This document shows positions 1 through 14,794 of a DNA stretch of 64,000 nt, piece after piece. The stretch is taken from assembly GCA_964464905.1 (NCBI GenBank), contig CAYXHC010000001.1, positions 1,097 through 65,096 of the forward strand, read 5' to 3'. Origin of the DNA: an uncultured Lachnospiraceae bacterium (GTDB lineage Bacteria > Bacillota > Clostridia > Oscillospirales > CAG-272). The position numbers were made by a program, and so were the translations under genes. The notes under the pieces are model-generated. The model searched no databases. It saw nothing but the letters and a program-made list of their open reading frames with translations, and was not told where the DNA came from. How positions within the stretch are numbered: position 1 is the first letter of the stretch; every line of letters begins with the position of its first letter.

Positions 1-86
1 GCGGTCTTGCCGAGGGGCTTGCCTGCTGCATCGAGAACGTACCACTTGCGTTCAACCGTCTCTTTTTTTGCCATGTAGGTCGACAT
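1..86 (-). CDS. rplM: 50S ribosomal protein L13, first 28 codons only (gene continues past the left edge)
   Basis: Minus-strand reading from 86 gives ATG TCG ACC TAC ATG GCA AAA AAA GAG ACG GTT GAA CGC AAG TGG TAC GTT CTC GAT GCA GCA GGC AAG = MSTYMAKKETVERKWYVLDAAGKPLGKT. This contains the conserved L13 N-terminal ERKWYV.DA.G..LG pattern. GGAGGA lies 6 nt upstream of the ATG. The fragment is too short for the ORF track. Confidence 0.8.
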   Translation of the reverse strand, partial: MSTYMAKKETVERKWYVLDAAGKPLGKT

Positions 87-174
87 TGTGATTCCTCCGA
101 TGAATATCTGATTTAATAAAAAACTGTTTTGTTGCACGGAAAAGAGAGCGTACCTCTCCGGCCGCGCGAGTGAA

Positions 175-203
175 ATTATAACACGGGGTATCAGGCTTGT
201 CAA
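175..203 (-). promoter_or_regulatory. SigA-type promoter upstream of rplM
   Basis: On the minus strand: TTGACA (203..198), 17 nt spacer, TATAAT (180..175). Both hexamers are consensus. It lies about 90 nt upstream of the rplM start. Confidence 0.7.
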
Positions 204-345
204 TACACTTTTCAAAAAAATATTATAAAATTTTAATTTACACCCGACTTTTCTCGCAAAATCTCTTGATATCTCCGCTTTTTGCCCGTTTTTGGCCTGC
301 TGATTGCATGCAAACAATGCTTGCAGTGCTATGCGACATACATTA

Positions 346-379
346 TAAAAGAAAAAACGGCGGTGTGGTCACCGCCGTT
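346..379 (-). terminator. Rho-independent terminator after solute-binding protein gene 1
   Basis: Stem AACGGCGGTG (356-365) / CACCGCCGTT (370-379) with loop TGGT. On the minus strand it is followed by a T-run (plus-strand A-run 346-357). It lies 17 nt beyond the stop at 396. Confidence 0.75.
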
Positions 380-395
380 TCGTTTTATTAGATCA

Positions 396-1835
396 TCAGC
401 CGAAAATATCGAGCTTTTCCATGCTCTTTTCAATCGCCTTGTTTATAGACTTCTGAAGCTTGGCATAGAGGGTGGCGGGACTCGCATTTACGTCCTGAAG
501 GGTGGTGTATGCGGAACCCCAGTTGAAGAATACGCCAAGGTCGTAGCTTCTCTGCTCAAATATGATATCAAGCATTGCGCCGGATTCCTCGTCACGGGAG
601 TAGCGGGACTTGAGCTGACCCTCGTAGTAGGCGGGAATGAGATAGTCGGATCCCTTTGCAGCCATGGCTTCAACGATGATGCTGGTGGTGTAGGGATCTT
701 CGCAGTTAAGACCAACGGTCATAACGCAGGAGGAAACGGCTATGTAGGAATAGTAACGCTTCTGATCGGAGTTCTGCTTGGGGAAGGGGACGATGCCGAA
801 ATCTTCTTCGTTTTCGCGGAAGCCGCGGGCGTGAGCGATGACCTCGGTCGCAAAGAGGGTTCTTGCTTCCTGGAAAATGAGACGCGCCTGATTGGAGTTA
901 TCGTAGCATTCGGTGTCACCCATTATGAGAACGAGCTTTTCAAAGGCGTTTACGAAAGCCTCGGAACCCCAGGCAATGGCGGGAACGCCGTCTTTGTCGA
1001 TCTCAACTAACTTGAGACCTGCAGACTGCCAGAATGCGGGATAGTTTTCGCTGTGACCTGCAATGCCGAAAATATCGGTGCCGCTGTCGGCAACTCCGTT
1101 TGCGTTAACGTCTTCTTTGACTATGTTGCCCATTTCGTACATCTTATCCCAGGTCCACTCGTTGTTGTTGACGAGGTCGTAGGGACTTTCGAGACCTGCA
1201 TTTTCGATCATAGACTTGGTGAAGTATACGCACCAGATACATTCCTTGTCGGAAAGGGCGATATCGCCGGAAATCATATAGTGTAATCCGCCGAGAGCGA
1301 GCTGATCGGTGCAGTCGCTGTTCCACCAGGCTTTGTCGAGGTTGATATAGTCGAATTCTTCGATGGGATAGCAGTATCCGGAACCTACCGCTGTTGCGGA
1401 GTAGCTCATATTGTTAAAGCAGATGTTGTAGTCCTGAGTGTTTGCATCAACGTCGGTCTTGAAAAGATTGTAAACAGACTCGCCCATTGACGCGGTGGCT
1501 TCGCTGATCTCGATGCCGAGGAGATCTTCAACCGCACGGTTGCGCTCGTAGACTGCCTGTTCGTAAGCATCGTCTGAGGGCTCGTCAAAGTCGCAGAGAG
1601 TGTAATTGTATGTAAGTATGTCGGGGGTGAGTATGGTGAATGCCATACCGTCAAACTTTTCGTTGGGGATCTCAAGAACGTCCTTTTGAGTATCGGCGTT
1701 TTCAGTCTCCGTGCTGCCGGTACCGGTGTCTGCAACGTCGCCCGTGCCCTCGCCGCCGTCAGCGGGATCGGAGCAGGCTGCCAGCGGAACCGTGATCATA
1801 AGAAGCACGAGCAGTAAACTTAATAATTTTCGCAT
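396..1835 (-). CDS. Extracellular solute-binding lipoprotein, LplA/LipO-like (SBP paralog 1)
   Basis: ORF track gives 396..1847. I moved the start to ATG 1835 (MRKLLSLLLVLLMITVPLAAC) because GGAGG sits 5 nt upstream. The lipobox is L-A-A-C, followed by a Gly/Thr/Asp-rich linker. The protein is about 60-65% identical by eye to the next two paralogs, e.g. WWNSDCT.QLALGG.HYM.SGDIALSDKECIW and YYEGQLKSRYSRDEESG.MLDIIF. Confidence 0.85.
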   Translation of the reverse strand: MRKLLSLLLVLLMITVPLAACSDPADGGEGTGDVADTGTGSTETENADTQKDVLEIPNEKFDGMAFTILTPDILTYNYTLCDFDEPSDDAYEQAVYERNRAVEDLLGIEISEATASMGESVYNLFKTDVDANTQDYNICFNNMSYSATAVGSGYCYPIEEFDYINLDKAWWNSDCTDQLALGGLHYMISGDIALSDKECIWCVYFTKSMIENAGLESPYDLVNNNEWTWDKMYEMGNIVKEDVNANGVADSGTDIFGIAGHSENYPAFWQSAGLKLVEIDKDGVPAIAWGSEAFVNAFEKLVLIMGDTECYDNSNQARLIFQEARTLFATEVIAHARGFRENEEDFGIVPFPKQNSDQKRYYSYIAVSSCVMTVGLNCEDPYTTSIIVEAMAAKGSDYLIPAYYEGQLKSRYSRDEESGAMLDIIFEQRSYDLGVFFNWGSAYTTLQDVNASPATLYAKLQKSINKAIEKSMEKLDIFG

Positions 1836-1873
1836 AATTACCTCCAATGTTTTTGTTATAACTGTACAATTTA

Positions 1874-1879
1874 ATGATA
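1874..1879 (-). promoter_or_regulatory. Probable -10 box (TATCAT) of the SBP1 promoter, inside a 15-nt block shared with the SBP2 promoter
   Basis: Plus-strand TTAATGATACAGCAT (1871-1885) is identical to 3575-3589 upstream of SBP2. On the gene strand it reads ATGCTGTATCATTAA. No good -35 hexamer is present. TGTGAA repeats lie just upstream (see findings). Confidence 0.5.
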
Positions 1880-2040
1880 CAGCATCACAGGCGGCAATAT
1901 GTGAACGAAAATAAAACTAATCATCAATATTGTGAAAATAATATTTCAAATATGTGAATAGAATTTCAAAAAGATTGAAAATCAGCGGAAGGAAGCCTTT
2001 GTCGCGTTTTGACGATCGGGAGGGGGATGACTTTTTGGGA

Positions 2041-2069
2041 AAACAAAAACCGGCAGAGAGATCTGCCGG
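2041..2069 (-). terminator. Rho-independent terminator after SBP paralog 2
   Basis: Stem CCGGCAGA (2050-2057) / TCTGCCGG (2062-2069) with loop GAGA. On the minus strand it is followed by TTTTTGTTT (plus-strand A-run 2041-2049). Confidence 0.8.
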
Positions 2070-2081
2070 TTTTATTATGTT

Positions 2082-3560
2082 GATCTTAGAGACCGAGCTT
2101 TTCGAACGCCTTTTCGATCTGCTTGTTGGTCTGCTTTTCTACCTTAGCGTAGAGGGAAGCGGGGTTAACGTCTACGCTCTTGAGGGAGGAGTACGCGGAG
2201 CCCCAGTTGAAGAATACGCCGAGGTCGTAGCAACGGTTAGCAAAGATGATGTCGAGCATTTCGCCGGACTCTTCGTCACGGGAGTAGCGGGACTTGAGCT
2301 GACCTTCGTAGTAAGCGGGCATAAGGATCTCGGAACCCTTGGCAGCCATAGCTTCGAGAATGATGCTGGTCTGGTAGGGGCTTGCGCAGTCCTTACCAAC
2401 GGTCATAACGCAGGAGTTAACTGCGATATAGGAGTAGTAGGTGTCAATGTCAGAGCTGTACTTGGGATAAGGAAGGATACCGAAGTCGTATTCGTTTTCA
2501 CGGTAGTCGCGAACGAAAGCGATAACCTCGGTTCCGAAGAGGCACTTACCTTCCTTAAGGCAGGTGGTGATGTGCGCAACAGCGTCGGAAACGGTGGAGG
2601 TGGTGGTCCAGTTTACGTTTTCGGTGTCGCCCATGAGCTCAACGATATCTTCGAATACGTTAACGAACTGTTCGGAGTTCCAGTTGATCTTGGGTGTGCC
2701 TGCTTCGTCAAGGGAAGCGAGGGTGAGACCTGCGGATTCCCAGCTTGCAGGGAAGTTTTCGCCGTGTGTAACGAAACCGTAGATGTCGCCGGAGTCGAGA
2801 GCGCCGGAGCCGTTTTCGTCAGAGGTAGCGGTCATAGCCATTTCGTGCATCTTGTCCCAGGTCCATTCGTTGTTCTTAACGAGCTGGTAGGGATCTTCGA
2901 GGCCCTTGTACTTTTCAATGAGTTCCTTGATGAAGTAAACAGCCCAGATACATTCCTTGTCGGAAAGGGCGATGTCGCCGGAGAGCATGTAGTGCATGCC
3001 GCCGAGAGCGAGCTGCTCGGTGCAGTCGCTGTTCCACCAGGACTTGTCGAGATCGATGTAATCGAACAGGTCAAGCTCGTAGCAGAGGCCGGCGCCGGTA
3101 GCGGTGCAGGAGTACTCCATCTGGTTGAAGGTTACGCCGTAGTCGCCGGTGTTAGCTTCAACGGCAGTCTTGAAGAGGGTGTAAACTTCGGAGCCGATGC
3201 CGGAGGAAACCTCGGTGATGGTGATGTTGAGGAGGTTCTCGACAGCGTCGTTACGCAGATAAAGAGCGTTTTCGTACATGTCTTCGGAAGGCTCGTCAAA
3301 ATCGGTTGCGGTGTAGTTATACGTAACTACGGTAGGAGTGAGAACTACGAATTCATAGCCGTCGAAGTCCTCTGCGGGGATCTCGAGAACGTCAGAAACG
3401 TCACCCGTGCCGGAAGTTTCAGTGCCGGTACCGGTGTTTGCAGCGTCTCCCGTGCCCTCGCCGTCATCAGCGGGATCGGAGCAGGATGCAAGCGGTACTG
3501 CGAGCATGAGAACTACAAGCAGTAAGCTTAAGAATTTTTTCATAAATACCTCCAAGTATT
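2082..3560. repeat. Direct repeat copy 1 (1479 bp) of a tandem duplication with period 1695 bp
   Basis: 2082..3560 matches 3777..5255. The translated ORFs in several frames on both strands are letter-identical in the ORF track: 485 aa, 75 aa and 80 aa on the minus strand, and 72 aa plus the 317-aa tail on the plus strand. The boundary bases differ (2081 t vs 3776 c; 3561 c vs 5256 t). Confidence 0.9.
2086..3543 (-). CDS. Extracellular solute-binding lipoprotein, LplA/LipO-like (SBP paralog 2, duplicate copy 1)
   Basis: ORF track gives 2086..3720. I placed the start at ATG 3543 (MKKFLSLLLVVLMLAVPLASC) with GGAGG 5 nt upstream. The lipobox is L-A-S-C. The 485-aa product is identical to that of 3781..5238. 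Confidence 0.85.
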   Translation of the reverse strand: MKKFLSLLLVVLMLAVPLASCSDPADDGEGTGDAANTGTGTETSGTGDVSDVLEIPAEDFDGYEFVVLTPTVVTYNYTATDFDEPSEDMYENALYLRNDAVENLLNITITEVSSGIGSEVYTLFKTAVEANTGDYGVTFNQMEYSCTATGAGLCYELDLFDYIDLDKSWWNSDCTEQLALGGMHYMLSGDIALSDKECIWAVYFIKELIEKYKGLEDPYQLVKNNEWTWDKMHEMAMTATSDENGSGALDSGDIYGFVTHGENFPASWESAGLTLASLDEAGTPKINWNSEQFVNVFEDIVELMGDTENVNWTTTSTVSDAVAHITTCLKEGKCLFGTEVIAFVRDYRENEYDFGILPYPKYSSDIDTYYSYIAVNSCVMTVGKDCASPYQTSIILEAMAAKGSEILMPAYYEGQLKSRYSRDEESGEMLDIIFANRCYDLGVFFNWGSAYSSLKSVDVNPASLYAKVEKQTNKQIEKAFEKLGL

Positions 3561-3577
3561 CTATGTTACTACTGTTA

Positions 3578-3583
3578 ATGATA
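3578..3583 (-). promoter_or_regulatory. Probable -10 box (TATCAT) of the SBP2 promoter
   Basis: Same 15-nt block as at 1871-1885. It lies about 35 nt upstream of ATG 3543. Three TGAA-type repeats with an 11-bp period start 23 nt further upstream, at 3606, 3617 and 3628. Confidence 0.5.
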
Positions 3584-3702
3584 CAGCATATTGCGTCTGT
3601 AATGATGAATAATGTGTGAACGTCGTGTGAATTCATGACGAAGGGGGCGGGAGGTAGTCTTTTTTTGCGATGAAGTGCCTGAATGTATTTTCGCAATAGA
3701 AA

Positions 3703-3742
3703 CAAAAAAAGGAAATACACACGCCGATGCGTGTGTATTTCC
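3703..3742 (-). terminator. Rho-independent terminator after SBP paralog 3
   Basis: 14-bp stem GGAAATACACACGC (3711-3724) / GCGTGTGTATTTCC (3729-3742) with loop CGAT. On the minus strand it is followed by TTTTTTTGTTT. Confidence 0.85.
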
Positions 3743-3776
3743 CTTTATCGGAATAAAAATCTAAACCGTTAGAATC

Positions 3777-5255
3777 GATCTTAGAGACCGAGCTTTTCGA
3801 ACGCCTTTTCGATCTGCTTGTTGGTCTGCTTTTCTACCTTAGCGTAGAGGGAAGCGGGGTTAACGTCTACGCTCTTGAGGGAGGAGTACGCGGAGCCCCA
3901 GTTGAAGAATACGCCGAGGTCGTAGCAACGGTTAGCAAAGATGATGTCGAGCATTTCGCCGGACTCTTCGTCACGGGAGTAGCGGGACTTGAGCTGACCT
4001 TCGTAGTAAGCGGGCATAAGGATCTCGGAACCCTTGGCAGCCATAGCTTCGAGAATGATGCTGGTCTGGTAGGGGCTTGCGCAGTCCTTACCAACGGTCA
4101 TAACGCAGGAGTTAACTGCGATATAGGAGTAGTAGGTGTCAATGTCAGAGCTGTACTTGGGATAAGGAAGGATACCGAAGTCGTATTCGTTTTCACGGTA
4201 GTCGCGAACGAAAGCGATAACCTCGGTTCCGAAGAGGCACTTACCTTCCTTAAGGCAGGTGGTGATGTGCGCAACAGCGTCGGAAACGGTGGAGGTGGTG
4301 GTCCAGTTTACGTTTTCGGTGTCGCCCATGAGCTCAACGATATCTTCGAATACGTTAACGAACTGTTCGGAGTTCCAGTTGATCTTGGGTGTGCCTGCTT
4401 CGTCAAGGGAAGCGAGGGTGAGACCTGCGGATTCCCAGCTTGCAGGGAAGTTTTCGCCGTGTGTAACGAAACCGTAGATGTCGCCGGAGTCGAGAGCGCC
4501 GGAGCCGTTTTCGTCAGAGGTAGCGGTCATAGCCATTTCGTGCATCTTGTCCCAGGTCCATTCGTTGTTCTTAACGAGCTGGTAGGGATCTTCGAGGCCC
4601 TTGTACTTTTCAATGAGTTCCTTGATGAAGTAAACAGCCCAGATACATTCCTTGTCGGAAAGGGCGATGTCGCCGGAGAGCATGTAGTGCATGCCGCCGA
4701 GAGCGAGCTGCTCGGTGCAGTCGCTGTTCCACCAGGACTTGTCGAGATCGATGTAATCGAACAGGTCAAGCTCGTAGCAGAGGCCGGCGCCGGTAGCGGT
4801 GCAGGAGTACTCCATCTGGTTGAAGGTTACGCCGTAGTCGCCGGTGTTAGCTTCAACGGCAGTCTTGAAGAGGGTGTAAACTTCGGAGCCGATGCCGGAG
4901 GAAACCTCGGTGATGGTGATGTTGAGGAGGTTCTCGACAGCGTCGTTACGCAGATAAAGAGCGTTTTCGTACATGTCTTCGGAAGGCTCGTCAAAATCGG
5001 TTGCGGTGTAGTTATACGTAACTACGGTAGGAGTGAGAACTACGAATTCATAGCCGTCGAAGTCCTCTGCGGGGATCTCGAGAACGTCAGAAACGTCACC
5101 CGTGCCGGAAGTTTCAGTGCCGGTACCGGTGTTTGCAGCGTCTCCCGTGCCCTCGCCGTCATCAGCGGGATCGGAGCAGGATGCAAGCGGTACTGCGAGC
5201 ATGAGAACTACAAGCAGTAAGCTTAAGAATTTTTTCATAAATACCTCCAAGTATT
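3777..5255. repeat. Direct repeat copy 2 (1479 bp)
   Basis: See copy 1. The repeat covers the stop codon, the whole CDS, the RBS and 17 nt of 5' UTR. It does not include the promoter or the terminator. Confidence 0.9.
3781..5238 (-). CDS. Extracellular solute-binding lipoprotein, LplA/LipO-like (SBP paralog 3, duplicate copy 2)
   Basis: ORF track gives 3781..5274. I placed the start at ATG 5238 with the same GGAGGTATTT-ATG context as copy 1. The protein is identical to 2086..3543. Confidence 0.85.
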   Translation of the reverse strand: MKKFLSLLLVVLMLAVPLASCSDPADDGEGTGDAANTGTGTETSGTGDVSDVLEIPAEDFDGYEFVVLTPTVVTYNYTATDFDEPSEDMYENALYLRNDAVENLLNITITEVSSGIGSEVYTLFKTAVEANTGDYGVTFNQMEYSCTATGAGLCYELDLFDYIDLDKSWWNSDCTEQLALGGMHYMLSGDIALSDKECIWAVYFIKELIEKYKGLEDPYQLVKNNEWTWDKMHEMAMTATSDENGSGALDSGDIYGFVTHGENFPASWESAGLTLASLDEAGTPKINWNSEQFVNVFEDIVELMGDTENVNWTTTSTVSDAVAHITTCLKEGKCLFGTEVIAFVRDYRENEYDFGILPYPKYSSDIDTYYSYIAVNSCVMTVGKDCASPYQTSIILEAMAAKGSEILMPAYYEGQLKSRYSRDEESGEMLDIIFANRCYDLGVFFNWGSAYSSLKSVDVNPASLYAKVEKQTNKQIEKAFEKLGL

Positions 5256-5496
5256 TATCGTGATAGATGTACAAAATAATTTTACAACTAAACCGTTTAC
5301 AAAAGGTTAATAAATTGTGAACGAAAGATTAACATAGTGAGATAATGAATAAAAAAACAAACTAATTGAGAAAAAATCCTCTGCCAATGGTATAACTTGA
5401 CGATTATCTTAAACAAATCTTAAGGTTTTGGGTTATTTTATCTTAATAATGTTTGTGGTACAATTGAAGCGTGAAATGAAAAAGGAGACGATATCT

Positions 5497-6201
5497 ATGT
5501 ACAACATACTCGTTTGCGATGACGAAAAGGATATAGTGTCGGCGCTTGAAATATATCTTTCGGCTGAGGGATACCGCGTTTATAAGGCGTATGACGGCGA
5601 GGAGGCGATAAGCACCGTGAGAACGGAAGAGATACATCTCGTGCTTCTGGACGTTATGATGCCGATGACGGACGGGCTCCGCGCTATGAGGCGCCTGCGT
5701 GAGTTTTCAAACGTGCCCGTTTTGCTGCTGACGGCGAAAAGCGAGGAAACGGACAAAATAGCGGGACTGAACCTGGGCGCCGACGATTACATAACGAAGC
5801 CTTTCAATCCGGTTGAGGTTGCGGCGCGGGTGAAGGCGAATCTGCGTCGTTATATGCAGCTTGGCGGCGGTGACGTGAAGGCTCTTGAAAGCGTTTACAG
5901 CGTTTCCGGCATCGTGATGGACGATAAAGCTCACACCGTTACGAGAGACGGCGAGCCTATATCGCTGACTCCCACCGAATACGATATACTGAAACTGTTT
6001 CTGATGCATCCCGACGAGCTGATGACGCCGAAGCGCATTTACGGCGCGGTCTGGGGCGGCAATTTCATCGGTGGCGAGGGGACCGTTGCCGTTCACATAC
6101 GTCATCTTCGCGAAAAACTTGAATACGATCCGTCCTCACCGAGATATCTTCGCGTTGTGTGGGGGCAGGGGTATAAGCTGTCAAGCATCGTTGGTGTTTG
6201 A
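5497..6201 (+). CDS. OmpR/PhoB-family response regulator (receiver plus winged-helix domain)
   Basis: ORF track gives 5428..6201. I placed the start at ATG 5497 (MYNILVCDDEKDIV) with AAGGAG 9 nt upstream. Receiver motifs are DD, LLDVMMP.DG and LLLTAK. The C-terminal end reads ...HIRHLREKLE...VWGQGYKL, typical of OmpR-type DNA-binding domains. Confidence 0.9.
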   Translation: MYNILVCDDEKDIVSALEIYLSAEGYRVYKAYDGEEAISTVRTEEIHLVLLDVMMPMTDGLRAMRRLREFSNVPVLLLTAKSEETDKIAGLNLGADDYITKPFNPVEVAARVKANLRRYMQLGGGDVKALESVYSVSGIVMDDKAHTVTRDGEPISLTPTEYDILKLFLMHPDELMTPKRIYGAVWGGNFIGGEGTVAVHIRHLREKLEYDPSSPRYLRVVWGQGYKLSSIVGV

Positions 6202-6233
6202 TATAAAAACATAAATATTAAGGAAAGGAACCG

Positions 6234-8156
6234 ATGAAAATGAAAAAACTTCAATGCTACAGATGGGCGCGAGTTGCGGCAGTGCTGCTGGCGGCTGTGA
6301 CGCTTACTGTTTTCTTTGGATCTGTCTTGGGGATCGTCGCTGCAGCAGATCTGGGACTCTATACACAAAGCTATGACAACGCAAAGGAAATGGCAGTGAC
6401 GGACGTGCTCTACGGCAATGCCTACCTTATAGTGAACGCCTACCGTGACAGCTATGTGCTTGGGTATTACTCACATTCACAGGCAAAAGCGCAGATGCAG
6501 GAAGCCGTGTTCCGCAAAAATCTTGATTTTGAGCTTTGGCGCGGGGAAGATATGCTCTATTCGTCTTATTCCGGTGTCGTTCCCGAGTCTGACGCTGTGT
6601 ATGAGCTTGGCGTGGCAGAGTACGGCGAGGGTGAATACAGCGTGCGTTTTTATCTTCTCAAAAACACGAAATGTTACGACGAGATCTATTTTATGGAGCA
6701 TTGGCTCGACAAGCTTTACGAAATGCGGTTCGCGCTCATCGTGATCTGCGTTTTGTCGTTGATCCTGTCGTTTTTGACGTGGCTTTTCGCCGTTTCTGCG
6801 GCGGGCAAGCGCCTCACCCTTGACGGATACGCAAGCGGCGTGCTGACGATGCTTGACCGCGTCCCTCTTGATCTGCTGCTGGCTTTTGCTGCAGCGGCTG
6901 TGTTTGTCGAGGCTCTCATATACGACTTCAACCACGACATAGGAGACATATTTACCGCCGTGCTTCTCGGCGTGTACGTTTTCGTTGATTCCGTATTCGT
7001 CACTCTTTTGTCGATGACCGTGAAGGTGCGTGTCGTAACGAAGACGGCACTTGATAACAATATCACGGCGATGCTTCTCAGACTGGGGTATAAGCTTGTA
7101 GTCCGGATATGGGAATGTATAAAGTCGGGAGCGAGGCTGATGGTGAAAATCGTTCGGTGCGTTCCCATGTTCTGGCGGACGCTGACTGCAACGATCGCCA
7201 TGACGGTGATAAGCTTCGTTATTACGTGTCTGGCTGCCGGAAACAGCGACGCGGCAATATTCCTTTTCGTGCTGTTTTGGCTTGCGGTAACGGTGTGGCT
7301 CTGCTTCTCCGCCTGGAATATGACGATACTCCGTCGGGGCGCCAAGCGTATCGCCGAAGGTGACCTTTCCTATCGCATCGACACGAAATATCTTCTTTTT
7401 GATTTTAAGCGTCACGCCGATGACCTTAACAGTATCAAAAACGGTATGGCAACGGCGGTGGAGGAACGGATGCGCGGCGAGATGTTCAAAACCGAGCTTA
7501 TCACCAACGTGTCCCACGATATAAAGACGCCTCTGACTTCAATAATAAATTACGTGGATCTTTTGAAAAAATGCGGAGTGGAAAATGAAGAAGCAAGAGG
7601 GTATATCGAGGTGCTCGACCGCCAATCCGCGAGACTCAAAAAGCTGACGGAGGATCTTGTAACTGCCTCGAAGGCGTCGTCGGGCGTCGTTAAAGCGGAG
7701 CTTAAGCCCTGCGATCTCGGGATCTTCGTTGAACAGACGGCGGGCGAATATGAAGAAAAGCTTGCGAAGGCGGATCTTAAGCTCGTGGTGTCAACGCCCG
7801 ACTATCCCGTTACCGTGGAGGCTGACGGCAAGCTTCTCTGGCGCATCTTCGATAACCTTATGAACAACGCTTTGAAATATTCGCTTCCGGGGTCGCGGGT
7901 GTACCTGTCTCTTAAAGAAAATGAAAGAGAAGGAACGGTGACGGTGACGAATGTGTCCCGCGAGCCGATAACGCGCGACGGGGGAGAGCTTACGGAAAGG
8001 TTCGTTCGCGGCGACGATTCCCGACATACGGAAGGCTCGGGACTCGGACTCTCTATCGCCAAAAGCTTCACGGAGCTTCAGAGAGGTACTTTTGACGTAA
8101 CGGCGGACTATGATCTGTTCCGCGTGACGGTGAAGTTTCCTTTGCCGGAGGAGTGA
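6234..8156 (+). CDS. Multi-pass membrane sensor histidine kinase (HisKA plus HATPase_c)
   Basis: The H-box is ELITNVSHDIKTPLTSI. The N box is NLMNNALKYS and the G boxes are GSGLGLSIAKS. TM1 is followed by an extracytoplasmic stretch of about 130 aa. Several further hydrophobic helices precede a HAMP-like linker. The gene starts 33 nt downstream of the response regulator stop. Confidence 0.9.
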   Translation: MKMKKLQCYRWARVAAVLLAAVTLTVFFGSVLGIVAAADLGLYTQSYDNAKEMAVTDVLYGNAYLIVNAYRDSYVLGYYSHSQAKAQMQEAVFRKNLDFELWRGEDMLYSSYSGVVPESDAVYELGVAEYGEGEYSVRFYLLKNTKCYDEIYFMEHWLDKLYEMRFALIVICVLSLILSFLTWLFAVSAAGKRLTLDGYASGVLTMLDRVPLDLLLAFAAAAVFVEALIYDFNHDIGDIFTAVLLGVYVFVDSVFVTLLSMTVKVRVVTKTALDNNITAMLLRLGYKLVVRIWECIKSGARLMVKIVRCVPMFWRTLTATIAMTVISFVITCLAAGNSDAAIFLFVLFWLAVTVWLCFSAWNMTILRRGAKRIAEGDLSYRIDTKYLLFDFKRHADDLNSIKNGMATAVEERMRGEMFKTELITNVSHDIKTPLTSIINYVDLLKKCGVENEEARGYIEVLDRQSARLKKLTEDLVTASKASSGVVKAELKPCDLGIFVEQTAGEYEEKLAKADLKLVVSTPDYPVTVEADGKLLWRIFDNLMNNALKYSLPGSRVYLSLKENEREGTVTVTNVSREPITRDGGELTERFVRGDDSRHTEGSGLGLSIAKSFTELQRGTFDVTADYDLFRVTVKFPLPEE

Positions 8157-8231
8157 AACAACGAGAAAGGGGAAATTTGCCGACTAATTCCAAAATCGCG
8201 GTCAAAATGTTACAATATTATTGATTTTTTA

Positions 8232-8261
8232 TTGACACAATGCAATTATATGTGTTATCAT
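8232..8261 (+). promoter_or_regulatory. SigA-type promoter for the first surface-protein gene
   Basis: TTGACA (8232-8237), 18 nt spacer, TATCAT (8256-8261), with TGTG immediately upstream of the -10. The conserved leader element starts about 7 nt after the -10 box. Confidence 0.65.
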
Positions 8262-8267
8262 ATAGAC

Positions 8268-8329
8268 AATAGTAGCCGGAGGGCGCCCTCCGTTATGATA
8301 GGTTCGCAGAACCTATCATAATAAACCTT
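8268..8329 (+). promoter_or_regulatory. Conserved 62-nt two-hairpin leader element, copy A
   Basis: 58 of 62 nt are identical to 12123-12184. It contains a 16-nt perfect palindrome, CGGAGGGCGCCCTCCG (8277-8292). It also contains a 13-bp perfect-stem hairpin, TTATGATAGGTTC-GCA-GAACCTATCATAA (8293-8321). No U-tract follows the hairpin. Confidence 0.8.
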
Positions 8330-8379
8330 TATGGCGGGAAGTTCCGACGGCACGAAAATTTATTTTGGAGGAACTTTTC

Positions 8380-9237
8380 ATGAAAAAGATTCTTGCTCTC
8401 GTAATGGTAGTTGCAATGCTCGCATGCTTCGCTACCGCTACATCCGCTGCAGAAATGAAGTTTGTTGAAGAAGCAAGCTTTGATTTCAGCACCACCGAAG
8501 GCCTCAAGGGCTATACCGCAAGCTGGCCCGGTAACGACCTCATGTGCAACGCTGCTGCTGCAGAGGTTGCTGAAGGCGTTATCGTTGACGGCGCATTCGT
8601 TGCAGGCACCATGGGCTTCGTTGTAGACGAAGTATTTGATGCTACCAACGGTATCAAGATCAAGATGGACATTACCATCGACAAGACCAAGGTTGGCGGT
8701 TCTCCCTGGTTCCAGGGCGTTGCTTCCTTCTTTAATGCAGACGGCAAGTCCGCTGAATTCCTCGCTCTCGCTGGCGAAGAGTTCGAGCACTCCTACGATG
8801 CATACTACCTCAACTACAAGGGTTCCGGTACTCACTTCCAGGCACATACCGGTGACCTCGGCGAAGGCGCTACCGGCAACAATGTTGTTTGGGGCGGCGA
8901 CGTTGCTGAAGACCTCGTTACCGACGATGCTCCCACCTGGAGCGGCACTGTAGAATTCATCGTTGTTCCCGCTGAAACCGGCGCTACCGTTACCATCCTT
9001 GTTGACGGCGTTGACATCGGTCTCCCCAACAACCCCGAATTCGCAAACTTCCTCTCTGACGAAATGCTCGTTACCATCGGTGCTACTCACTACGGCGACT
9101 ATGCACTCGCTTCCACCATTGATAACGTTGTTATCTACACCATGCAGGAAGAAGCTACTCAGACCGGTTTCGCTACTGTTGCTCTCGCAATCGTTGCAAT
9201 CGGTTCCGGCGCTTACATCGTATCCAAGAAGCACTAA
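8380..9237 (+). CDS. Secreted ConA/LamG-like (DUF1080-like) beta-sandwich protein with a C-terminal QTG-TM-KKH anchor
   Basis: ORF track gives 8365..9237. I placed the start at ATG 8380 with GGAGGA 8 nt upstream. The signal peptide is MKKILALVMVVAMLACFATATSA/AE. The C-terminus is EEATQTGFATVALAIVAIGSGAYIVSKKH (motif, hydrophobic helix, basic tail). The fold call is by eye from the beta-rich pattern ending ...STIDNVVIY. Confidence 0.7.
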   Translation: MKKILALVMVVAMLACFATATSAAEMKFVEEASFDFSTTEGLKGYTASWPGNDLMCNAAAAEVAEGVIVDGAFVAGTMGFVVDEVFDATNGIKIKMDITIDKTKVGGSPWFQGVASFFNADGKSAEFLALAGEEFEHSYDAYYLNYKGSGTHFQAHTGDLGEGATGNNVVWGGDVAEDLVTDDAPTWSGTVEFIVVPAETGATVTILVDGVDIGLPNNPEFANFLSDEMLVTIGATHYGDYALASTIDNVVIYTMQEEATQTGFATVALAIVAIGSGAYIVSKKH

Positions 9238-9253
9238 TTATTGGATCAAAAAA

Positions 9254-9278
9254 GGCTCCCTAAAGGGGGCCTTTTTTT
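9254..9278 (+). terminator. Rho-independent terminator
   Basis: Stem GGCTCCC (9254-9260), loop TAAA, stem GGGGGCC (9265-9271), followed by TTTTTTT (9272-9278). It is nearly the same hairpin as at 10190-10213. Confidence 0.85.
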
Positions 9279-9307
9279 AGATGGGCATCAAAATTGTAAA
9301 TAAAGTG

Positions 9308-9336
9308 TTGACAAAGTTTTTATGCGGTGTTATTAT
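9308..9336 (+). promoter_or_regulatory. SigA-type promoter for the second surface-protein gene
   Basis: TTGACA (9308-9313), 17 nt spacer, TATTAT (9331-9336). Confidence 0.7.
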
Positions 9337-9390
9337 GAGATATAAAGTTTTGATGCTTCATCAAAAACAAAAAAACATGGAGGAACTTTT

Positions 9391-10170
9391 ATGAAAAAGA
9401 TTCTTGCTCTCGTAATGGTAGTTGCTATGCTCGCATGCTTCGCTACCGTTGCAAACGCTGCTGCTCCCGAAGGACAGATTGCGTACTACACCTTTGACGC
9501 TGCTGACGAAGCAGGCCTCACCGTAAACGGCGACAACGCTACCTACGCTGACGGCGCTGTTACTCTCGGCGACGCTACTTACCTCACTGCGGACATCGAT
9601 CTTTCCGGTGTTACCGCTATGACCGTTGCTCTCAAGGTTAAGATCACCGATACTGATGCTAACTGGGGCTTTGAGATCACCTCTGAAGAGGCTCACTCCT
9701 GGCCGGCTGAGCATTACATCGGCTGCCTCCTCAACGGCAGTGCTGTGATCGAACGCTACAACAACACCGACGGTCGTCCCAATTCCGCTTCCGCTACTAT
9801 CGCGGTTGACGAATGGGTTGAGCTCGTAGTTGTTCTTCCTGAAGACGGCTCCATCGTTCTTTATGCTGACGGCGCAGAAGTTGCTAACGTTCCTCAGACC
9901 GAAGGCTTCGACCTCGCTATCGCAAACTGCATCGGCGAAACTCCCGTATTCCAGATTGGTAAGGCTAACTGGGGCGAAGGCGAATACGCTGCAGGCACCT
10001 CCATCGACACTTTTGCAGTTTACAACACTGCTCTCTCTGCTGACGAAGTAGCTACCGCTCTCGAAGCTCCCGCAGCAGACGAAGAAGCTGCTCAGACCGG
10101 TTTCGCTACCGTTGCTCTCGCAATCGTTGCAATCGGCTCCGGCGCTTACATCGTGTCTAAGAAGCACTAA
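9391..10170 (+). CDS. Secreted LamG-domain protein with a C-terminal QTG-TM-KKH anchor
   Basis: GGAGGA lies 7 nt upstream of the start. The signal peptide is MKKILALVMVVAMLACFATVANA/AA. The LamG-like hallmark is ...IGKANWGEGEYAAGTSIDTFAVYNTALSADEV, resembling the common ...D.V.IYNRALSA.EI ending. The C-terminus is EEAAQTGFATVALAIVAIGSGAYIVSKKH. Confidence 0.75.
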   Translation: MKKILALVMVVAMLACFATVANAAAPEGQIAYYTFDAADEAGLTVNGDNATYADGAVTLGDATYLTADIDLSGVTAMTVALKVKITDTDANWGFEITSEEAHSWPAEHYIGCLLNGSAVIERYNNTDGRPNSASATIAVDEWVELVVVLPEDGSIVLYADGAEVANVPQTEGFDLAIANCIGETPVFQIGKANWGEGEYAAGTSIDTFAVYNTALSADEVATALEAPAADEEAAQTGFATVALAIVAIGSGAYIVSKKH

Positions 10171-10189
10171 TTCCTGAATGAGCGAAAAA

Positions 10190-10213
10190 GGCTCCCGAAA
10201 GGGAGCCTTTTTT
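10190..10213 (+). terminator. Rho-independent terminator
   Basis: Stem GGCTCCC (10190-10196), loop GAAA, stem GGGAGCC (10201-10207), followed by TTTTTT. Confidence 0.85.
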
Positions 10214-10257
10214 GCGTTAAAATGCTGCGTTTGATTCAGTTAATGTTAATAAACGTA

Positions 10258-10286
10258 TTGCACCGGAGCGGGTTATATGGTATAAT
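10258..10286 (+). promoter_or_regulatory. SigA-type promoter for the lectin-like lipoprotein gene
   Basis: TTGCAC (10258-10263), 17 nt spacer, TATAAT (10281-10286). Confidence 0.7.
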
Positions 10287-10325
10287 AATCTTGCAATATC
10301 CTATATAATATAAGGAGAATTATTC

Positions 10326-11675
10326 ATGAAAAAGATACTTGCTCTTTTACTTGCCGTTATGATGCTGGCAGCTCTCGTTGCCTGCGACGATGGCAGTCTG
10401 CCTCCCGTTGACGGAGAAAGCGATAGCGAAGGCACGGGAACGGGCGAAGGCACCGAAACTGAGGCAGAATCCGAAACCGAAGAAGAAGACGAGGACTATG
10501 TCCCTGACTTTGAAGCGAAATACGGCGGCTGCGTCGGTGTGGGCGTTGAGTCCGGCTCCGCTTACTTCGATAACCTTAAGGTTGTGTCTAAGCAGACCGA
10601 TAAGAAGGAGCTCTACTACGATGAGCTCGAGGGCGAGCTTCCCGTTCTCACTTACGTTACGGGTGCTGAAGCCGATTGGGCTGTTGCTGTTGACCCCACC
10701 GAGGATGAAGATGAGGATGATCCCAACCACGCTCTCGGATACACGGGCTCTTCCGCTTCTATGGTGACCTTCGGTTCCTCCAACTGGAATTACTATCAGT
10801 ATTCCATGAAGGTGTATCCCGTTGACGACACCACAGTTATCGATCTTTATTTCTGCGTTACCGATGCTGATAACTATTTCGTCGTTTCCGTTGGCGGAAA
10901 CGATGGCGATTCCCTTTGCTATCAGGTAGTCGGCGGCGAGAAGACGGCTGTTGCGCCCAGTGTTTACGCTCCCGTTGAGATCGGTGAATGGACCTCCGTC
11001 GGCATTACCGTTGAACGTGAGACCATCGATATCTACATCGGCGGCACCAAGCGCTTCTCTCTCTTTAATGATGAATTCGAATACAGCATGACCATCGCAA
11101 ACAGAGCTACCGTTAACGCTCCTTACTGCGCTTCCTGGGAAACTCCCGGCTCCATTAACGACGGTATGTATCCTGACGCTACCTACGCTTCCGTTTCCAA
11201 CGGTACCGCTTACGGCTCCTGGAGCATGGCAGATATATCCGAGACCATTTCTTACGAATGGGACGAGGCTGTGACTGTTGACGGTATCGGTCTCTTCTTC
11301 TGGCAGGACAAGGAAACCCGTGAATACTGGCTCGAAAACGGCGGTATCCACTCTGCTTCCTACTATACCATCCAGTATCTCGATGAAAACGGCGACTACG
11401 TAGACGTTGAAAATGCTGTTGGTCTTGAGGTTCTCGATGACGTTATGAACCAGACCTTCTTCGATGCTGTTACCACCACGTCAATTCAGGTAACTCTCTA
11501 TAAGTTCACCGAAGAGGAGGATGCTACCTACAGATTCTCCGAATATAAGGAGTATGAAGCAAACGGCGGCGATGTCGATGCTGAAGATGCACCTACGGAT
11601 CCTTCCATCCGCGGACTCGGACTCTTTGAGTTTGAAGTGTACGCAGCAGGCACAGTTGAAAGACCCGAGGAATGA
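10326..11675 (+). CDS. Lipoprotein with an acidic linker, a ConA/LamG-like domain and a C-terminal discoidin/galactose-binding-like domain
   Basis: The signal and lipobox are MKKILALLLAVMMLAALVAC. A Glu/Asp/Thr-rich linker follows. FDNLKV and ...IDIYIGG... strands resemble DUF1080/LamG. The C-terminal half (ASWETPGSINDG...GSWS...ISYEWDEAVTVDGIGLFFWQD...) looks like an F5/8-type-C carbohydrate-binding module. Domain calls are by eye. Confidence 0.6.
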   Translation: MKKILALLLAVMMLAALVACDDGSLPPVDGESDSEGTGTGEGTETEAESETEEEDEDYVPDFEAKYGGCVGVGVESGSAYFDNLKVVSKQTDKKELYYDELEGELPVLTYVTGAEADWAVAVDPTEDEDEDDPNHALGYTGSSASMVTFGSSNWNYYQYSMKVYPVDDTTVIDLYFCVTDADNYFVVSVGGNDGDSLCYQVVGGEKTAVAPSVYAPVEIGEWTSVGITVERETIDIYIGGTKRFSLFNDEFEYSMTIANRATVNAPYCASWETPGSINDGMYPDATYASVSNGTAYGSWSMADISETISYEWDEAVTVDGIGLFFWQDKETREYWLENGGIHSASYYTIQYLDENGDYVDVENAVGLEVLDDVMNQTFFDAVTTTSIQVTLYKFTEEEDATYRFSEYKEYEANGGDVDAEDAPTDPSIRGLGLFEFEVYAAGTVERPEE

Positions 11676-11711
11676 GTTTTTCGGCAATGACGCCTACATA
11701 AAACAATAACG

Positions 11712-11743
11712 GCTGACGCGGTTTTTCCGCGTCAGCTTTTTTT
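11712..11743 (+). terminator. Rho-independent terminator
   Basis: Stem GCTGACGCGG (11712-11721), loop TTTTT, stem CCGCGTCAGC (11727-11736), followed by TTTTTTT. Confidence 0.9.
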
Positions 11744-11768
11744 GTTTGTCGGCGCGAAACTGAGGATG

Positions 11769-11828
11769 TGTGAATAAAACTGTGAATATCGTTGAATATT
11801 TTTTTGAGGGGAAATTTTGTGTTAAAAT
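11769..11828 (+). promoter_or_regulatory. Candidate activator-dependent promoter: three TG(T)GAAT direct repeats plus an extended -10
   Basis: The repeats are TGTGAAT (11769), TGTGAAT (11781) and GTTGAAT (11791), spaced 12 and 10 bp apart. TG-T-TAAAAT follows at 11820-11828, and there is no recognisable -35. A transcript from here would carry a leader of about 450 nt into the importer operon. Confidence 0.4.
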
Positions 11829-12122
11829 ATTGTTCGATAAAATGAACAAAGTATGGCGAAAAAGTCCGACTTGTGTTATGAAATATGGTGAAAAAGATGA
11901 AAAAGTGCTGTGGGGACTTGAAATATTACACCGATGTATGATAAAATAAACAAACATTAAAAATCAAAATGTATAGGTGTTTGTATTTTGTTTTTTATTG
12001 GGAAGCGATTCCTTGACGACGACGGCGTTGCCGCGTCGTTCAATGGCGCATTGTGATGCCCGGTCAGTGTATGCCGGACCGGTGCGCAACTGTCTTTCCT
12101 TGTGTATGCGTTATTATATAAA

Positions 12123-12184
12123 AATAGCAGCCGGAGGGCGCCCTCCGTTATGATAGGTTCTGCGAACCTATCATAATAAACCTT
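12123..12184 (+). promoter_or_regulatory. Conserved 62-nt two-hairpin leader element, copy B
   Basis: It has the same palindrome (12132-12147) and the same 13-bp stem (12148-12160 / 12164-12176) as copy A. The 3-nt loop is TGC here, the reverse complement of GCA in copy A. One further substitution is at 12128. Confidence 0.8.
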
Positions 12185-12222
12185 ATCATTAAGCCGGAAC
12201 GGGGGAAGGGCAGATCATTTCG

Positions 12223-12270
12223 TTAACGGAGAGCTAAGCTCTGTTAAATTATATTTTTTTATATTTTTTT
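12223..12270 (+). terminator. Terminator-like hairpin plus T-rich tract inside the importer leader (possible attenuator)
   Basis: TTAAC-GG-AGAGC (12223-12234), loop TAA, GCTCT-GTTAA (12238-12247), then ATTATATTTTTTTATATTTTTTT. It lies immediately before the RBS GGGAGGA (12271-12277). The stem is short and imperfect. Confidence 0.4.
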
Positions 12271-12285
12271 GGGAGGAACAAAAAA

Positions 12286-14748
12286 ATGACAACTTTCAAG
12301 AGACTTATGAGCGTGCTGCTTGTTCTCTGTATGTTGTCCGTAGCTTTCGTTTCCTGCTCTAACAAGGGCGGCGACGCGAAGGTCGGTAACTATACATATA
12401 ACAGCTACGCAAGCAGTCTCGGAACCAACTGGAACCCCCACACGTGGGAAGTAAGTTCCGATGACGCTATCCTCGGCTACGTAAGCTCCCCCTTCTGCAC
12501 GATGCAGGTTTCCGATTCCGAAAACGGCGTCTACCAGTGGGTGTATGAGATGGCTACCTCTATCGAGGACGTAACCAAGGATCACCAGGACGATCTCACC
12601 AAGTATGCTGTAACACTTCCCGAAGGCCAGTCGGCTTCCGAGACCACCGAAGGTTACGTTTACGAGATCAAGCTCAATGAAGATGCTAAGTGGGAAAACG
12701 GCACTCCTATCAATGCTGACACCTACATCTACTCCATGAAGGCTCTTCTTGACCCCGCTATGAAGAACTACCGCGCTAACCTCTACTATGCAGGCGAATC
12801 TGCAGTAGCAGGCGGTAATGCTTACTACTATAGCGGAGACATTGCATGGGATACCGATCTCATGGGTGCTGAAACCCTCGAAACCATCGTTAAGGGCGAA
12901 GACGGCACTTACACCACCTCTGATGGCAAGCCCATCGCTGTAGCTCTCACCTCCGCGCTTGATTGGCTCAGCGGATACGCTCTTTCCGACTACGTTGACG
13001 CTTACGGCGAAGCATACTTCGGCGTTGCAGATTACGAAACCCTTTCTGCTATGGCAGTTGGCGGCTTTGTACCCGTAACCGACGAAGTTATCGACCTTAT
13101 GGAAGGCGTTATCACCGCTGTTGAAGCTTGGGGCGAAACCAGAGCTGACGTAGCTCAGTACTTCTACTCCGGTACTCAGATGCCTGAGGCTACCTACGAC
13201 GTTGTAGGCTGCTACAAGGTTGACGATTACACCATTCGTTATGTATGCCAGACATACCTCGACAAAAACTACTTCCTCACCTCCTGCACCTCTACCTGGC
13301 TCGTATATGAAGATCTCTACGAAGCAGGAAAGGACACCACCGGTACTCTCGTAACCACTAACTACAACTCTTCTCCTGAAACCACCATGTCCTACGGTCC
13401 TTACAGAATCGAGTCCATGCAGAACGACAAGCAGATCGTTTACGTTCAGAATGAGAACTGGTACGGCTACGAAAAGGAAGGCGACTACCTCGTATCCTAC
13501 ACTCCTTACCTCGTTGACGGTAAGAACGTACAGCGCTACATGACCACCAAGATCGTTATCAACGTTATGGATAACGACGCTGCAAAGCTCGCGTTCCTTA
13601 AGGGTGACCTTGACGACTGGGCTCCCAGTGCAGACGACCTCGTTAACTACGCTATGAGCGAACAGCTCTACAAGGTTGACGAAACCTACACCATGTCCTT
13701 CTTCTTCAACACAGACGTTTCTATGCTCCAGGAGATGGATAACTCCAAGGGTAACATCAACTCCGTTGTTCTTTCAAACTACAACTTCCGTAAGGCATTC
13801 TCCCTTGCAGTTGACCGTACTGAGTTTGTAACCGCTACCGAAGGCTACAAGCCCGCTTACGCACTTATGAACAACCTCTACTTCTACGACGTATACAACG
13901 ATCCTAACTCCTCCTACAGAGGCTCTGATGAGGCTATGCAGGCAGTCTGCGATCTTTACGGCGTAAAGTACGGTGAAGGTACTCCTTATGCAACTCTCAA
14001 GGAAGCATACGACTCCATCACCGGTTACAACCTTACTGAAGCTAAGGCTCTCATGGCAACCGCTTGCCAGGAGCTCGTAGATGCAGGCCTCTACACCGCA
14101 GGTGAAGACATCACCATCCGTATCGGCTGGTCCAAGTCTGCTCTCACTTCTGCTGATAACAATCAGATCGCTCTTATGAACAAGTACATCAACGCTGCTG
14201 TTGAAGGATCCGGCTTCGGCAAGATCACTCTCGAAGGCGTTGGCTCCGTTGAAGACCGTTACGGCGACGTTCCCGCAGGTAACTTCGCAATCGGTTACGG
14301 CGCATGGGGCGGTGCTGCGTTCTATCCTTTCCGTAACTTCCAGGTTTACTGCGACACCGAGCAGTATGCAGGCCAGATCAATGAAATGGCATGCTGGGAT
14401 CCTTCCGTTGAAGAGCTCACTCTCACGGTAGACGGCAAGGAAGTAACTATGACATGGCAGGAATGGTCTCGTTCCATGACCGGTACCGGCCAGTTCGCAA
14501 CTGCAGACTTCTCCGTTAAGCTCGCTATCACGGCTCAGATGGAAAAGCTCTTCCTTGAAAAGTACTACAGAATCCCCTTCTGCGGAACTACTATATGCTC
14601 TATGCTCTCCTACAAGTGCAACTACTACACCGATGAATACAACATCATGTACGGTTTCGGCGGACTTGAGCTTATGACCTACAACTACACCGATGAAGAA
14701 TGGGCAGAATTCTGCGCTGAACAGAATGGCGATATTAAGTACGAATAA
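12286..14748 (+). CDS. ABC transporter substrate-binding lipoprotein, family 5 (Opp/Dpp-type), unusually long at 820 aa
   Basis: The signal and lipobox are MTTFKRLMSVLLVLCMLSVAFVSC. By eye the layout is family-5: ...YVYEIKLNEDAKWENGTPINADTYIYSMKALLDP..., then ...YGPYRIES...VYVQNENWYG... It is followed by Opp-type permeases and ATPases. Confidence 0.8.
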   Translation: MTTFKRLMSVLLVLCMLSVAFVSCSNKGGDAKVGNYTYNSYASSLGTNWNPHTWEVSSDDAILGYVSSPFCTMQVSDSENGVYQWVYEMATSIEDVTKDHQDDLTKYAVTLPEGQSASETTEGYVYEIKLNEDAKWENGTPINADTYIYSMKALLDPAMKNYRANLYYAGESAVAGGNAYYYSGDIAWDTDLMGAETLETIVKGEDGTYTTSDGKPIAVALTSALDWLSGYALSDYVDAYGEAYFGVADYETLSAMAVGGFVPVTDEVIDLMEGVITAVEAWGETRADVAQYFYSGTQMPEATYDVVGCYKVDDYTIRYVCQTYLDKNYFLTSCTSTWLVYEDLYEAGKDTTGTLVTTNYNSSPETTMSYGPYRIESMQNDKQIVYVQNENWYGYEKEGDYLVSYTPYLVDGKNVQRYMTTKIVINVMDNDAAKLAFLKGDLDDWAPSADDLVNYAMSEQLYKVDETYTMSFFFNTDVSMLQEMDNSKGNINSVVLSNYNFRKAFSLAVDRTEFVTATEGYKPAYALMNNLYFYDVYNDPNSSYRGSDEAMQAVCDLYGVKYGEGTPYATLKEAYDSITGYNLTEAKALMATACQELVDAGLYTAGEDITIRIGWSKSALTSADNNQIALMNKYINAAVEGSGFGKITLEGVGSVEDRYGDVPAGNFAIGYGAWGGAAFYPFRNFQVYCDTEQYAGQINEMACWDPSVEELTLTVDGKEVTMTWQEWSRSMTGTGQFATADFSVKLAITAQMEKLFLEKYYRIPFCGTTICSMLSYKCNYYTDEYNIMYGFGGLELMTYNYTDEEWAEFCAEQNGDIKYE

Positions 14749-14794
14749 TTCTGATAACTGAAATAATCATACTGAATACACCATAAAAAAGGCG

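Follow-up and report, generated by a model that had tools for sequence, protein, structure and literature searches.

Phased TTHACA hexamers upstream of orphan solute-binding lipoprotein genes are candidate activator operators, probably distinct from the operator of the neighbouring two-component regulator

Direct hexamer repeats with an 11-bp period are a familiar form of regulatory site in Firmicutes, examples being the WalR (YycF) box, TGTWAH-N5-TGTWAH, and the CssR repeats, TTTTCACA. In Escherichia coli, the pho box lies about 10 nt from the −10 element. The description of the PHO box of Bacillus subtilis PhoP reportedly goes back to Eder et al. 1999. As set out in the portion of PMC11870197 that deals with it, the B. 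subtilis PHO box is composed of TT(A/T/C)ACA-like hexamers on the coding strand, with an 11-bp periodicity and between about −20 and −60, usually in four copies. Class II activation by OmpR/PhoB-family regulators is characterised, in the relevant sections of PMC6222199 and PMC11870197, by head-to-tail repeats at helical-turn spacing that replace the −35 element.

We analysed a window of 64 kb (the whole stretch of DNA under study) in which a two-component operon is divergent from genes for orphan solute-binding lipoproteins (SBPs). Three such genes, which are paralogues, lie in the first 21 kb of the window, and the principal genes of the locus are as follows.

396–1835, − strand: SBP1, orphan lipoprotein solute-binding protein, with a weak SBP_bac_8 match
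2086–3543, − strand: SBP2, orphan lipoprotein solute-binding protein, 64% identical to SBP1
3781–5238, − strand: SBP3, orphan lipoprotein solute-binding protein; coding sequence and ribosome-binding site 100% identical to those of SBP2, promoter different
5497–6201, + strand: response regulator, OmpR-family and VanR-like; first gene of the divergent two-component operon
6234–8156, + strand: cognate histidine kinase, with a multi-pass membrane N-terminus, HisKA and HATPase_c
8371–9237, 9391–10170 and 10326–11675: three LamG-like surface-protein genes
12286–14748: family-5 binding protein gene of an Opp-like importer, followed by permeases and ATPases

The gene content of the window, which includes the LamG-like surface proteins, a GH43 protein with CBM6 and the Opp-like importer, points to plant-glycan use. 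SBP2 and SBP3 form a perfect 1,479-bp tandem duplication (2082–3560 is identical to 3777–5255), and this identity points to a recent duplication or to gene conversion, with an assembly effect as a further possibility. Because it ends 17 nt 5′ of the start codon, the two promoters differ and are not copies of one another. A metagenome scan with the SBP alignment recovered zero relatives. The regulator is VanR-like in sequence, yet its score falls under the VanR cut-off, and a search against PDB sequences gave only generic OmpR-family matches, which did not reveal its specificity.

The original prediction held that TGTGAA-type direct repeats in the promoter regions of this locus are sites of an OmpR-family regulator encoded at 5497. 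That regulator is indeed present, and every repeat coordinate agrees with the sequence: TGTGAA occurs on the + strand at 1900, 1931, 1953, 3615, 3626, 5316, 11769 and 11781, with degenerate + strand copies at 3604 (GATGAA) and 11791 (GTTGAA). Two more phased copies, one on either side of 5316, had been overlooked: GGTTAA (5305) and GATTAA (5327). Read on the SBP coding strand, the three SBP promoters contain the following boxes and predicted −10 elements.

1874–1879, − strand: SBP1 predicted −10, TATCAT; no −35 lies at 17 nt, and none of the promoters found in a canonical-promoter scan uses this −10
1900–1905, − strand: SBP1 proximal box, TTCACA, 20 nt 5′ of the −10
1931–1936, − strand: SBP1 second box, TTCACA, 31 bp 5′ of the proximal box
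1953–1958, − strand: SBP1 third box, TTCACA, 22 bp from the second box
3578–3583, − strand: SBP2 predicted −10, TATCAT
3604–3609, − strand: SBP2 proximal box, TTCATC, degenerate, 20 nt 5′ of the −10
3615–3620, − strand: SBP2 middle box, TTCACA
3626–3631, − strand: SBP2 distal box, TTCACA
5279–5284, − strand: SBP3 predicted −10, TAAAAT
5305–5310, − strand: SBP3 proximal box, TTAACC, 20 nt 5′ of the −10
5316–5321, − strand: SBP3 middle box, TTCACA
5327–5332, − strand: SBP3 distal box, TTAATC, degenerate; 11-bp period; the matching place in locus L001 reads TTAATC/TTCATA/TTCACC

The SBP2 hexamers follow an exact 11-bp period (11 + 11 bp), and at SBP1, where the spacing is 31 + 22 bp, both upstream boxes are 2 bp off the 11-bp register relative to the proximal box. 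The distance from TATCAT to the repeats at SBP2 had been given as 23 nt, which is correct when counted to the TGAA core; counted to the nearest hexamer it is 20 nt.

Over the whole 64-kb window TGTGAA is found 32 times against 30.4 expected, which is chance level. The four intergenic regions flanking the two-component system (1,355 nt) contain eight copies where dinucleotide shuffles predict 1.33 (nominal p = 7.7e-5), with a strand split of 8:0, and the remaining 4,116 nt of intergenic DNA in the window contain one (Fisher p = 1e-4 against the 1,355 nt). The hexamer is thus not generally frequent in AT-rich intergenic DNA of the window, which was the circumstance that the original prediction had named as counting against it. 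When the freedom to pick any hexamer is taken into account, 14% of shuffles contain one that is equally extreme, so that the enrichment within the window is only suggestive.

Homologues of SBP1 led us to the syntenic loci L081, L082/83, L084/85, L086/87 and L088 and to the short locus L001. In all of these an SBP gene is divergent from an orthologous regulator-kinase pair with LamG-like genes after it, and this divergent synteny is kept in at least five lineages. On the SBP coding strand, the promoter modules read as follows.

Window SBP1: TTCACA-N20-TATCAT, with two further TTCACA upstream
Window SBP2: TTCACA-N5-TTCACA-N5-TTCATC-N20-TATCAT
Window SBP3: TTAATC-N5-TTCACA-N5-TTAACC-N20-TAAAAT
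L001: TTAATC-N5-TTCATA-N5-TTCACC-N20-TAGAAT
L081, first SBP: TTCACA-N5-TTCACA-N5-TCAACC-N20-TAAAAT
L081, second SBP: TTAACA-N5-TTCAAC-N20-TATCAT
L082, L086 and L088: TTTACA-N5-TTAACA-N20-TATTAT
L084: TTTACA-N5-TTAACA, and 22 bp further downstream another TTAACA, 20 nt from TATTAT

In the coding-strand orientation of the SBP genes the hexamer is TT[C/A/T]ACA (TTHACA), in two to four direct copies, corresponding to TGTGAA, TGTTAA or TGTAAA on the + strand of the window. The boxes have an 11-bp period at SBP2, SBP3, L001, L081, L082, L084, L086 and L088. SBP1 departs from it, with 22 + 31 bp, a spread comparable to that of the orthologous promoter at L081:9791-10000, where four boxes extend over about 70 bp. 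In about ten SBP promoters the proximal box lies exactly 20 nt 5′ of the predicted −10. The flanks of the orthologous promoters have diverged to the point of being unalignable, and the boxes and their register are conserved; within the window, the box-to-−10 spacers of SBP1 and SBP2 are identical by eye at 8 of 20 positions, with box and −10 kept. A promoter scan found the SBP genes to be without a canonical −35, and the LamG-like and importer genes to have canonical promoters.

We also scanned 2.9 million positions for a composite pattern comprising a pair of TTHACA-like hexamers with an 11-bp period and no more than two mismatches across the pair, N20 and TAnnnT. The pattern was matched 33 times, and 12 of these matches sit 74–107 nt 5′ of SBP genes, compared with 0.025 expected. 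These 12 represent at least five independent promoters, and only about five, because of the close kinship of L082, L084, L086 and L088. Every SBP promoter that is linked to the two-component system has clear boxes. Among unlinked homologues, L089 and L090 have plausible phased hexamers, and two distant SBP homologues that are not adjacent to a two-component system have weak boxes (L095) or none (L096). The module is convincing because its architecture recurs at related loci, whereas the window alone would be suggestive, and we conclude that the TGTGAA repeats are real, conserved candidate activator operators upstream of the three SBP genes.

The layout that had been proposed for these repeats, that of an OmpR/PhoB-family operator, is well borne out at the SBP promoters: at least two head-to-tail half-sites are present at helical-turn spacing, with an 11-bp period and a fixed place at a poor −35, abutting a −10 element, and the arrangement is conserved in the orthologues. 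As in the E. coli PhoB pho box and the OmpR F and C sites, the repeats take the place of the −35, which would imply a winged-helix dimer that recruits RNA polymerase. The E. coli PhoB sites themselves are different, with a CTGTCAT half-site in place of the hexamers seen here and with a spacing to the −10 other than the 20 nt of the SBP proximal box. The B. subtilis PHO box described in PMC11870197 corresponds well: the SBP boxes fit its consensus (TTCACA, TTAACA and TTTACA are seen here, TTGACA never), and they are likewise direct repeats with an 11-bp period, on the coding strand, in a −35 region that lacks a −35. Most SBP promoters have two to three boxes, as opposed to the usual four in that account, although the range of two to four boxes found here satisfies the sequence description of a B. 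subtilis-type PHO box. The downstream genes are also unlike the PhoP regulon, being orphan sugar-type SBP genes and not recognisable phosphate-starvation genes.

Other site classes were also considered. WalR requires A or T where the window's dominant hexamer, TGTGAA, found in eight copies in the four intergenic regions, has G at position 4, and the TGTTAA and TGTAAA of the L082 group would fit. The orientation of the SBP boxes to the gene is opposite to that at typical WalR-activated promoters. The CssR sequence TTTTCACA occurs literally at 1929–1936. Neither cell-wall nor secretion-stress genes lie downstream of the SBP boxes. AraC-type and LytTR-type sites were ruled out, since the half-sites are identical and recur at an 11-bp period. 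A catabolite-control (cre) site was rejected by eye, as the context of the hexamers misfits the TGNAANCG core. An alternative sigma promoter of the ECF or sporulation type was likewise set aside, there being no AAC...CGT and no CATA-type −10, and the multiple phased copies favour a transcription factor over an alternative sigma factor.

Taken as an operator, the boxes would belong to a promoter module common to orphan SBP genes, in which two to four head-to-tail TT[C/A/T]ACA hexamers are placed one helical turn apart. The proximal box would cover about −38 to −33 relative to the predicted transcription start, exactly 20 nt 5′ of a predicted −10 (TATCAT, TATTAT or TAAAAT) and with no usable −35. 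A phosphorylated winged-helix regulator of the OmpR/PhoB family, with a specificity of the PhoP/ResD/CssR type (TTHACA), would bind the boxes as head-to-tail dimers or oligomers and recruit RNA polymerase, substituting for the −35 contact. This regulator is most likely not the neighbour 5497–6201, whose autoregulation appears to use a different repeat. We lean somewhat towards an activator encoded at an unlinked position, which would bind the phased boxes and replace the −35 contact at the SBP promoters.

The different repeat lies in the same divergent region, upstream of the regulator gene.

5407–5446, + strand: TCTTAA operator, formed by boxes at 5407, 5418 and 5441, the last of them 12 nt 5′ of the regulator-gene −10
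5459–5464, + strand: predicted regulator-gene −10, TACAAT, preceded by TGg

With the kinase as query we retrieved 80 loci, whose regulators are 53–86% identical to that of the window. A triple TCTTAA repeat is found 5′ of the regulator gene in 71 of 77 orthologous loci, where the region is otherwise unalignable, and these 71 span Oscillospiraceae, Lachnospiraceae and Erysipelotrichaceae (Clostridia and Erysipelotrichia). The consensus of the regulator promoters is aTCTTAAtcAAATCTTAA-N~16-TtCTTAA followed, after 12–13 nt, by TAnAAT. In the 1.19 Mb of kinase-family loci, 21 of 28 perfect TCTTAA-N5-TCTTAA pairs fall within 200 nt 5′ of a regulator gene, as against none of six TTHACA pairs close to any regulator gene. 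Those six TTHACA pairs, all perfect, fall within coding sequence or ahead of unrelated genes, for instance that for xylose isomerase, and appear to be chance occurrences. In L019 the same three-box TCTTAA architecture also precedes the upstream GT2 glycosyltransferase gene, which suggests that TCTTAA boxes are in use at target genes too. Both the PmrA box (CTTAAG/T-N5-xTTAAT) and the Clostridioides difficile RR_1586 sites (DRTTAAG direct repeats) resemble the TCTTAA-N5-TCTTAA at 5407–5423, and not TGTGAA: they share with it a CTTAA core, a 5-bp spacer and direct repetition. The TCTTAA family differs from them in adding a third box about 22 bp downstream, which ends 12–13 nt from the −10. The triple repeat at 5407–5446 is probably the neighbouring regulator's own autoregulatory site. 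The common divergent region would then contain two distinct OmpR-type operators, and the neighbouring regulator is probably not the protein that binds the TGTGAA boxes.

It remains to weigh which protein would act at the SBP boxes, and whether any does. In the original prediction, the regulator 5497–6201, phosphorylated by the kinase 6234–8156, binds TGTGAA/TTHACA and activates the SBP genes and possibly the importer, which would require it to use two box types, TTHACA at the SBP genes and TCTTAA at its own promoter. The conserved synteny of SBP and regulator-kinase genes, which are divergently adjacent in the window and in L001, L081, L082/83, L084/85, L086/87 and L088, would ordinarily point to this regulator and keeps that possibility alive. 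It is also the sole response regulator within the window, the boxes have an OmpR-type layout, and the clearest of them belong to SBP genes linked to the two-component system, in spite of the plausible hexamers in L089 and L090. TCTTAA and TGTNAA are moreover co-oriented on the same strand and have T1, T3, A5 and A6 in common, and one regulator promoter, that of L007, has TGTTAA as a variant of the distal box. The assignment nevertheless does not hold up well against the specificity indicated by the TCTTAA operators, because the neighbouring regulator's own promoter carries a different repeat. TGTGAA has G at positions 2 and 4, which are two of the best-conserved positions of TCTTAA; in the unanchored distal operator box, 3 of 71 loci have G at position 2 and none has it at position 4, and in an alternative register, where the SBP boxes have C at position 7, C is absent from 142 regulator boxes. 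By our own tally of hexamers, C is missing from position 2 of every SBP box, and TCTTAA is not among the sequences of these boxes. All 78 regulators, whether SBP-linked or not and including those with TCTTAA at a target gene, share an invariant recognition helix, (T)[V/I]AVHIRHLREK[L/I]E. The promoters of the regulator, of 71 of its 77 orthologues and of the L019 target gene have TCTTAA boxes, and the SBP promoters contain no TCTTAA pair with up to two mismatches, the nearby ones at 3528 and 5223 overlapping the start codons of SBP2 and SBP3. We therefore regard control of the SBP genes by the neighbour as unlikely.

A more specific version of the explanation that we prefer is that the boxes are true PHO boxes, through which the organism's PhoP/PhoR would activate the SBP genes under phosphate limitation. 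TT(A/T/C)ACA-like hexamers on the coding strand, with an 11-bp period and at about −33 to −60, agree with the B. subtilis description in the part of PMC11870197 that covers it, and no box reads TTGACA. A perfect TTCACA pair in L094 also precedes a gene for a HAD-family hydrolase, a possible phosphatase. However, the gene content indicates plant-glycan use and not phosphate, neither a pst operon nor a pho gene was found in the compared contigs (the best PstB-like match is 37% identical), and four boxes are usual where most promoters here have two or three. Several further OmpR-family regulators, among them ResD, CssR and WalR, also use similar hexamers, and we consider the phosphate version quite improbable. 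The remaining alternative is that the repeats have no regulatory role and reflect chance, the base composition of AT-rich promoters, or remnants of duplicated promoters of the SBP paralogues. The whole-window count at expectation, the 14% of shuffles with an equally enriched hexamer, the paralogy of SBP1–SBP3 with the perfect SBP2/SBP3 duplication, and an unconserved further cluster at 11769–11797 are all compatible with this. Such an origin would not account for the recurrence of boxes at an exact 20-nt distance from the −10 where flanks are unalignable (12 matches against 0.025 expected), nor for the 8:0 strand split, nor for phased boxes in both the SBP2 and SBP3 promoters, neither of which is a copy of the other. 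At the SBP promoters this reading is disfavoured, and we hold it to be very improbable.

An unlinked activator thus stays our preferred reading, in which the TTHACA-binding regulator would be encoded elsewhere in the genome and the SBP genes would therefore respond to a second signal. A search of loci totalling about 1.45 Mb for a further response regulator preceded by TTHACA boxes of its own detected no other response-regulator gene; outside these loci, L096 does encode an unrelated OmpR-type pair. The proposed second regulator is accordingly hypothetical. A more far-reaching reading, to which we give a rather low probability, is that the SBP genes depend on such a second, unlinked OmpR-type regulator and that the neighbour controls only itself. 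If the SBPs serve as extracellular co-sensors of the neighbouring kinase, the sensitivity of one signalling system would then be set by the other. In an alternative form of this reading, the neighbour would recognise both TCTTAA and TTHACA, in opposite orientations at divergent promoters.

The fourth cluster of the original prediction lies upstream of the importer.

11769–11797, + strand: TGTGAAT/TGTGAAT/GTTGAAT cluster, spacing 12 + 10 bp, orientation opposite to that of the SBP boxes
11918–11947, + strand: importer promoter, canonical TTGAAA-18-TAAAAT with an upstream TG, conserved in L092

The original prediction had itself cautioned that the repeats read TGTGAA on the importer coding strand and TTCACA on the SBP coding strand, and the caution was justified. 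The cluster begins right after a terminator at 11711–11737 and lies 121 bp 5′ of the −35 of a canonical promoter, and so lacks the fixed position seen at the SBP genes. In L092, which is on the same contig as L081, encodes an importer binding protein 84% identical to that of the window and is the closest relative with the importer region, the promoter and nearby sequence are conserved and the cluster is absent. Its equivalence with the SBP boxes could not be upheld; we place it outside the SBP module, and a function for it is doubtful.

The TTHACA boxes 20 nt from the −10 constitute a testable cis-regulatory module for orphan solute-binding lipoproteins of uncultured gut and rumen Clostridia, proteins for which no Pfam family scores above threshold and no regulation is known. 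In addition, the three TCTTAA boxes provide a probable operator for a widespread VanR-like two-component family, which would allow regulon prediction in hundreds of metagenome-assembled genomes. The locus also cautions that a direct repeat beside a regulator gene need not be the site of that regulator. The SBP module is useful for regulon reconstruction in uncultured Clostridia; its mechanism is ordinary and textbook, a common kind of bacterial switch that would not surprise a specialist.

Several further features of these loci were observed. In L094, positions 4572–4614 read TTCACA-N5-TTCACA-N20-TATACT, a perfect match 5′ of the HAD-family hydrolase gene (4648–5358), which sits just 5′ of a homologue of the Opp-like importer; the box regulon may accordingly extend beyond SBP genes. 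The LamG-like proteins encoded at 8371–9237 and 9391–10170, and at 3257–3391 in L001, share a signal peptide of almost identical sequence, MKKILALVMVVAMLACFAT..., as well as a membrane anchor at the C terminus, TGFATVALAIVAIGSGAYIVSKKH, and the two window genes have canonical TTGACA promoters with an extended −10 at 8232–8261 and 9308–9336. The first LamG-like gene and the importer gene share a 5′ leader (about 8262–8335 and about 12118–12190 in the window; about 6940–7010, − strand, in L082), in which an invariant hairpin, CGGAGGGCGCCCTCCG, is adjoined on its 3′ side by another hairpin, after which comes CATAATAA. In the L082 leader the second stem differs in sequence and its pairing is retained. 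An Rfam search of window positions 1–16000 found no known RNA family and left the leader unmatched; it may serve as a 5′ structure that stabilises the mRNA, or be recognised by an RNA-binding regulator.

Three loci that otherwise differ have a gene for an ECF-type sigma factor at most a few kb from an SBP homologue (L081, 7539–9790; L090, 12515–14351; L095, 11372–12185). The one in L095 adjoins a zf-HC2 anti-sigma gene, and the neighbour in L081 and L090 has no Pfam match, so that an anti-sigma role for it is only a guess. In L081 the sigma gene is located between the two SBP genes. SBP promoters in general do not look ECF-type. Lastly, the final SBP gene of L081, L084, L088 and L095 lies directly 5′ of rplM-rpsI (ribosomal proteins L13 and S9), a position that provides a chromosomal landmark for the locus.
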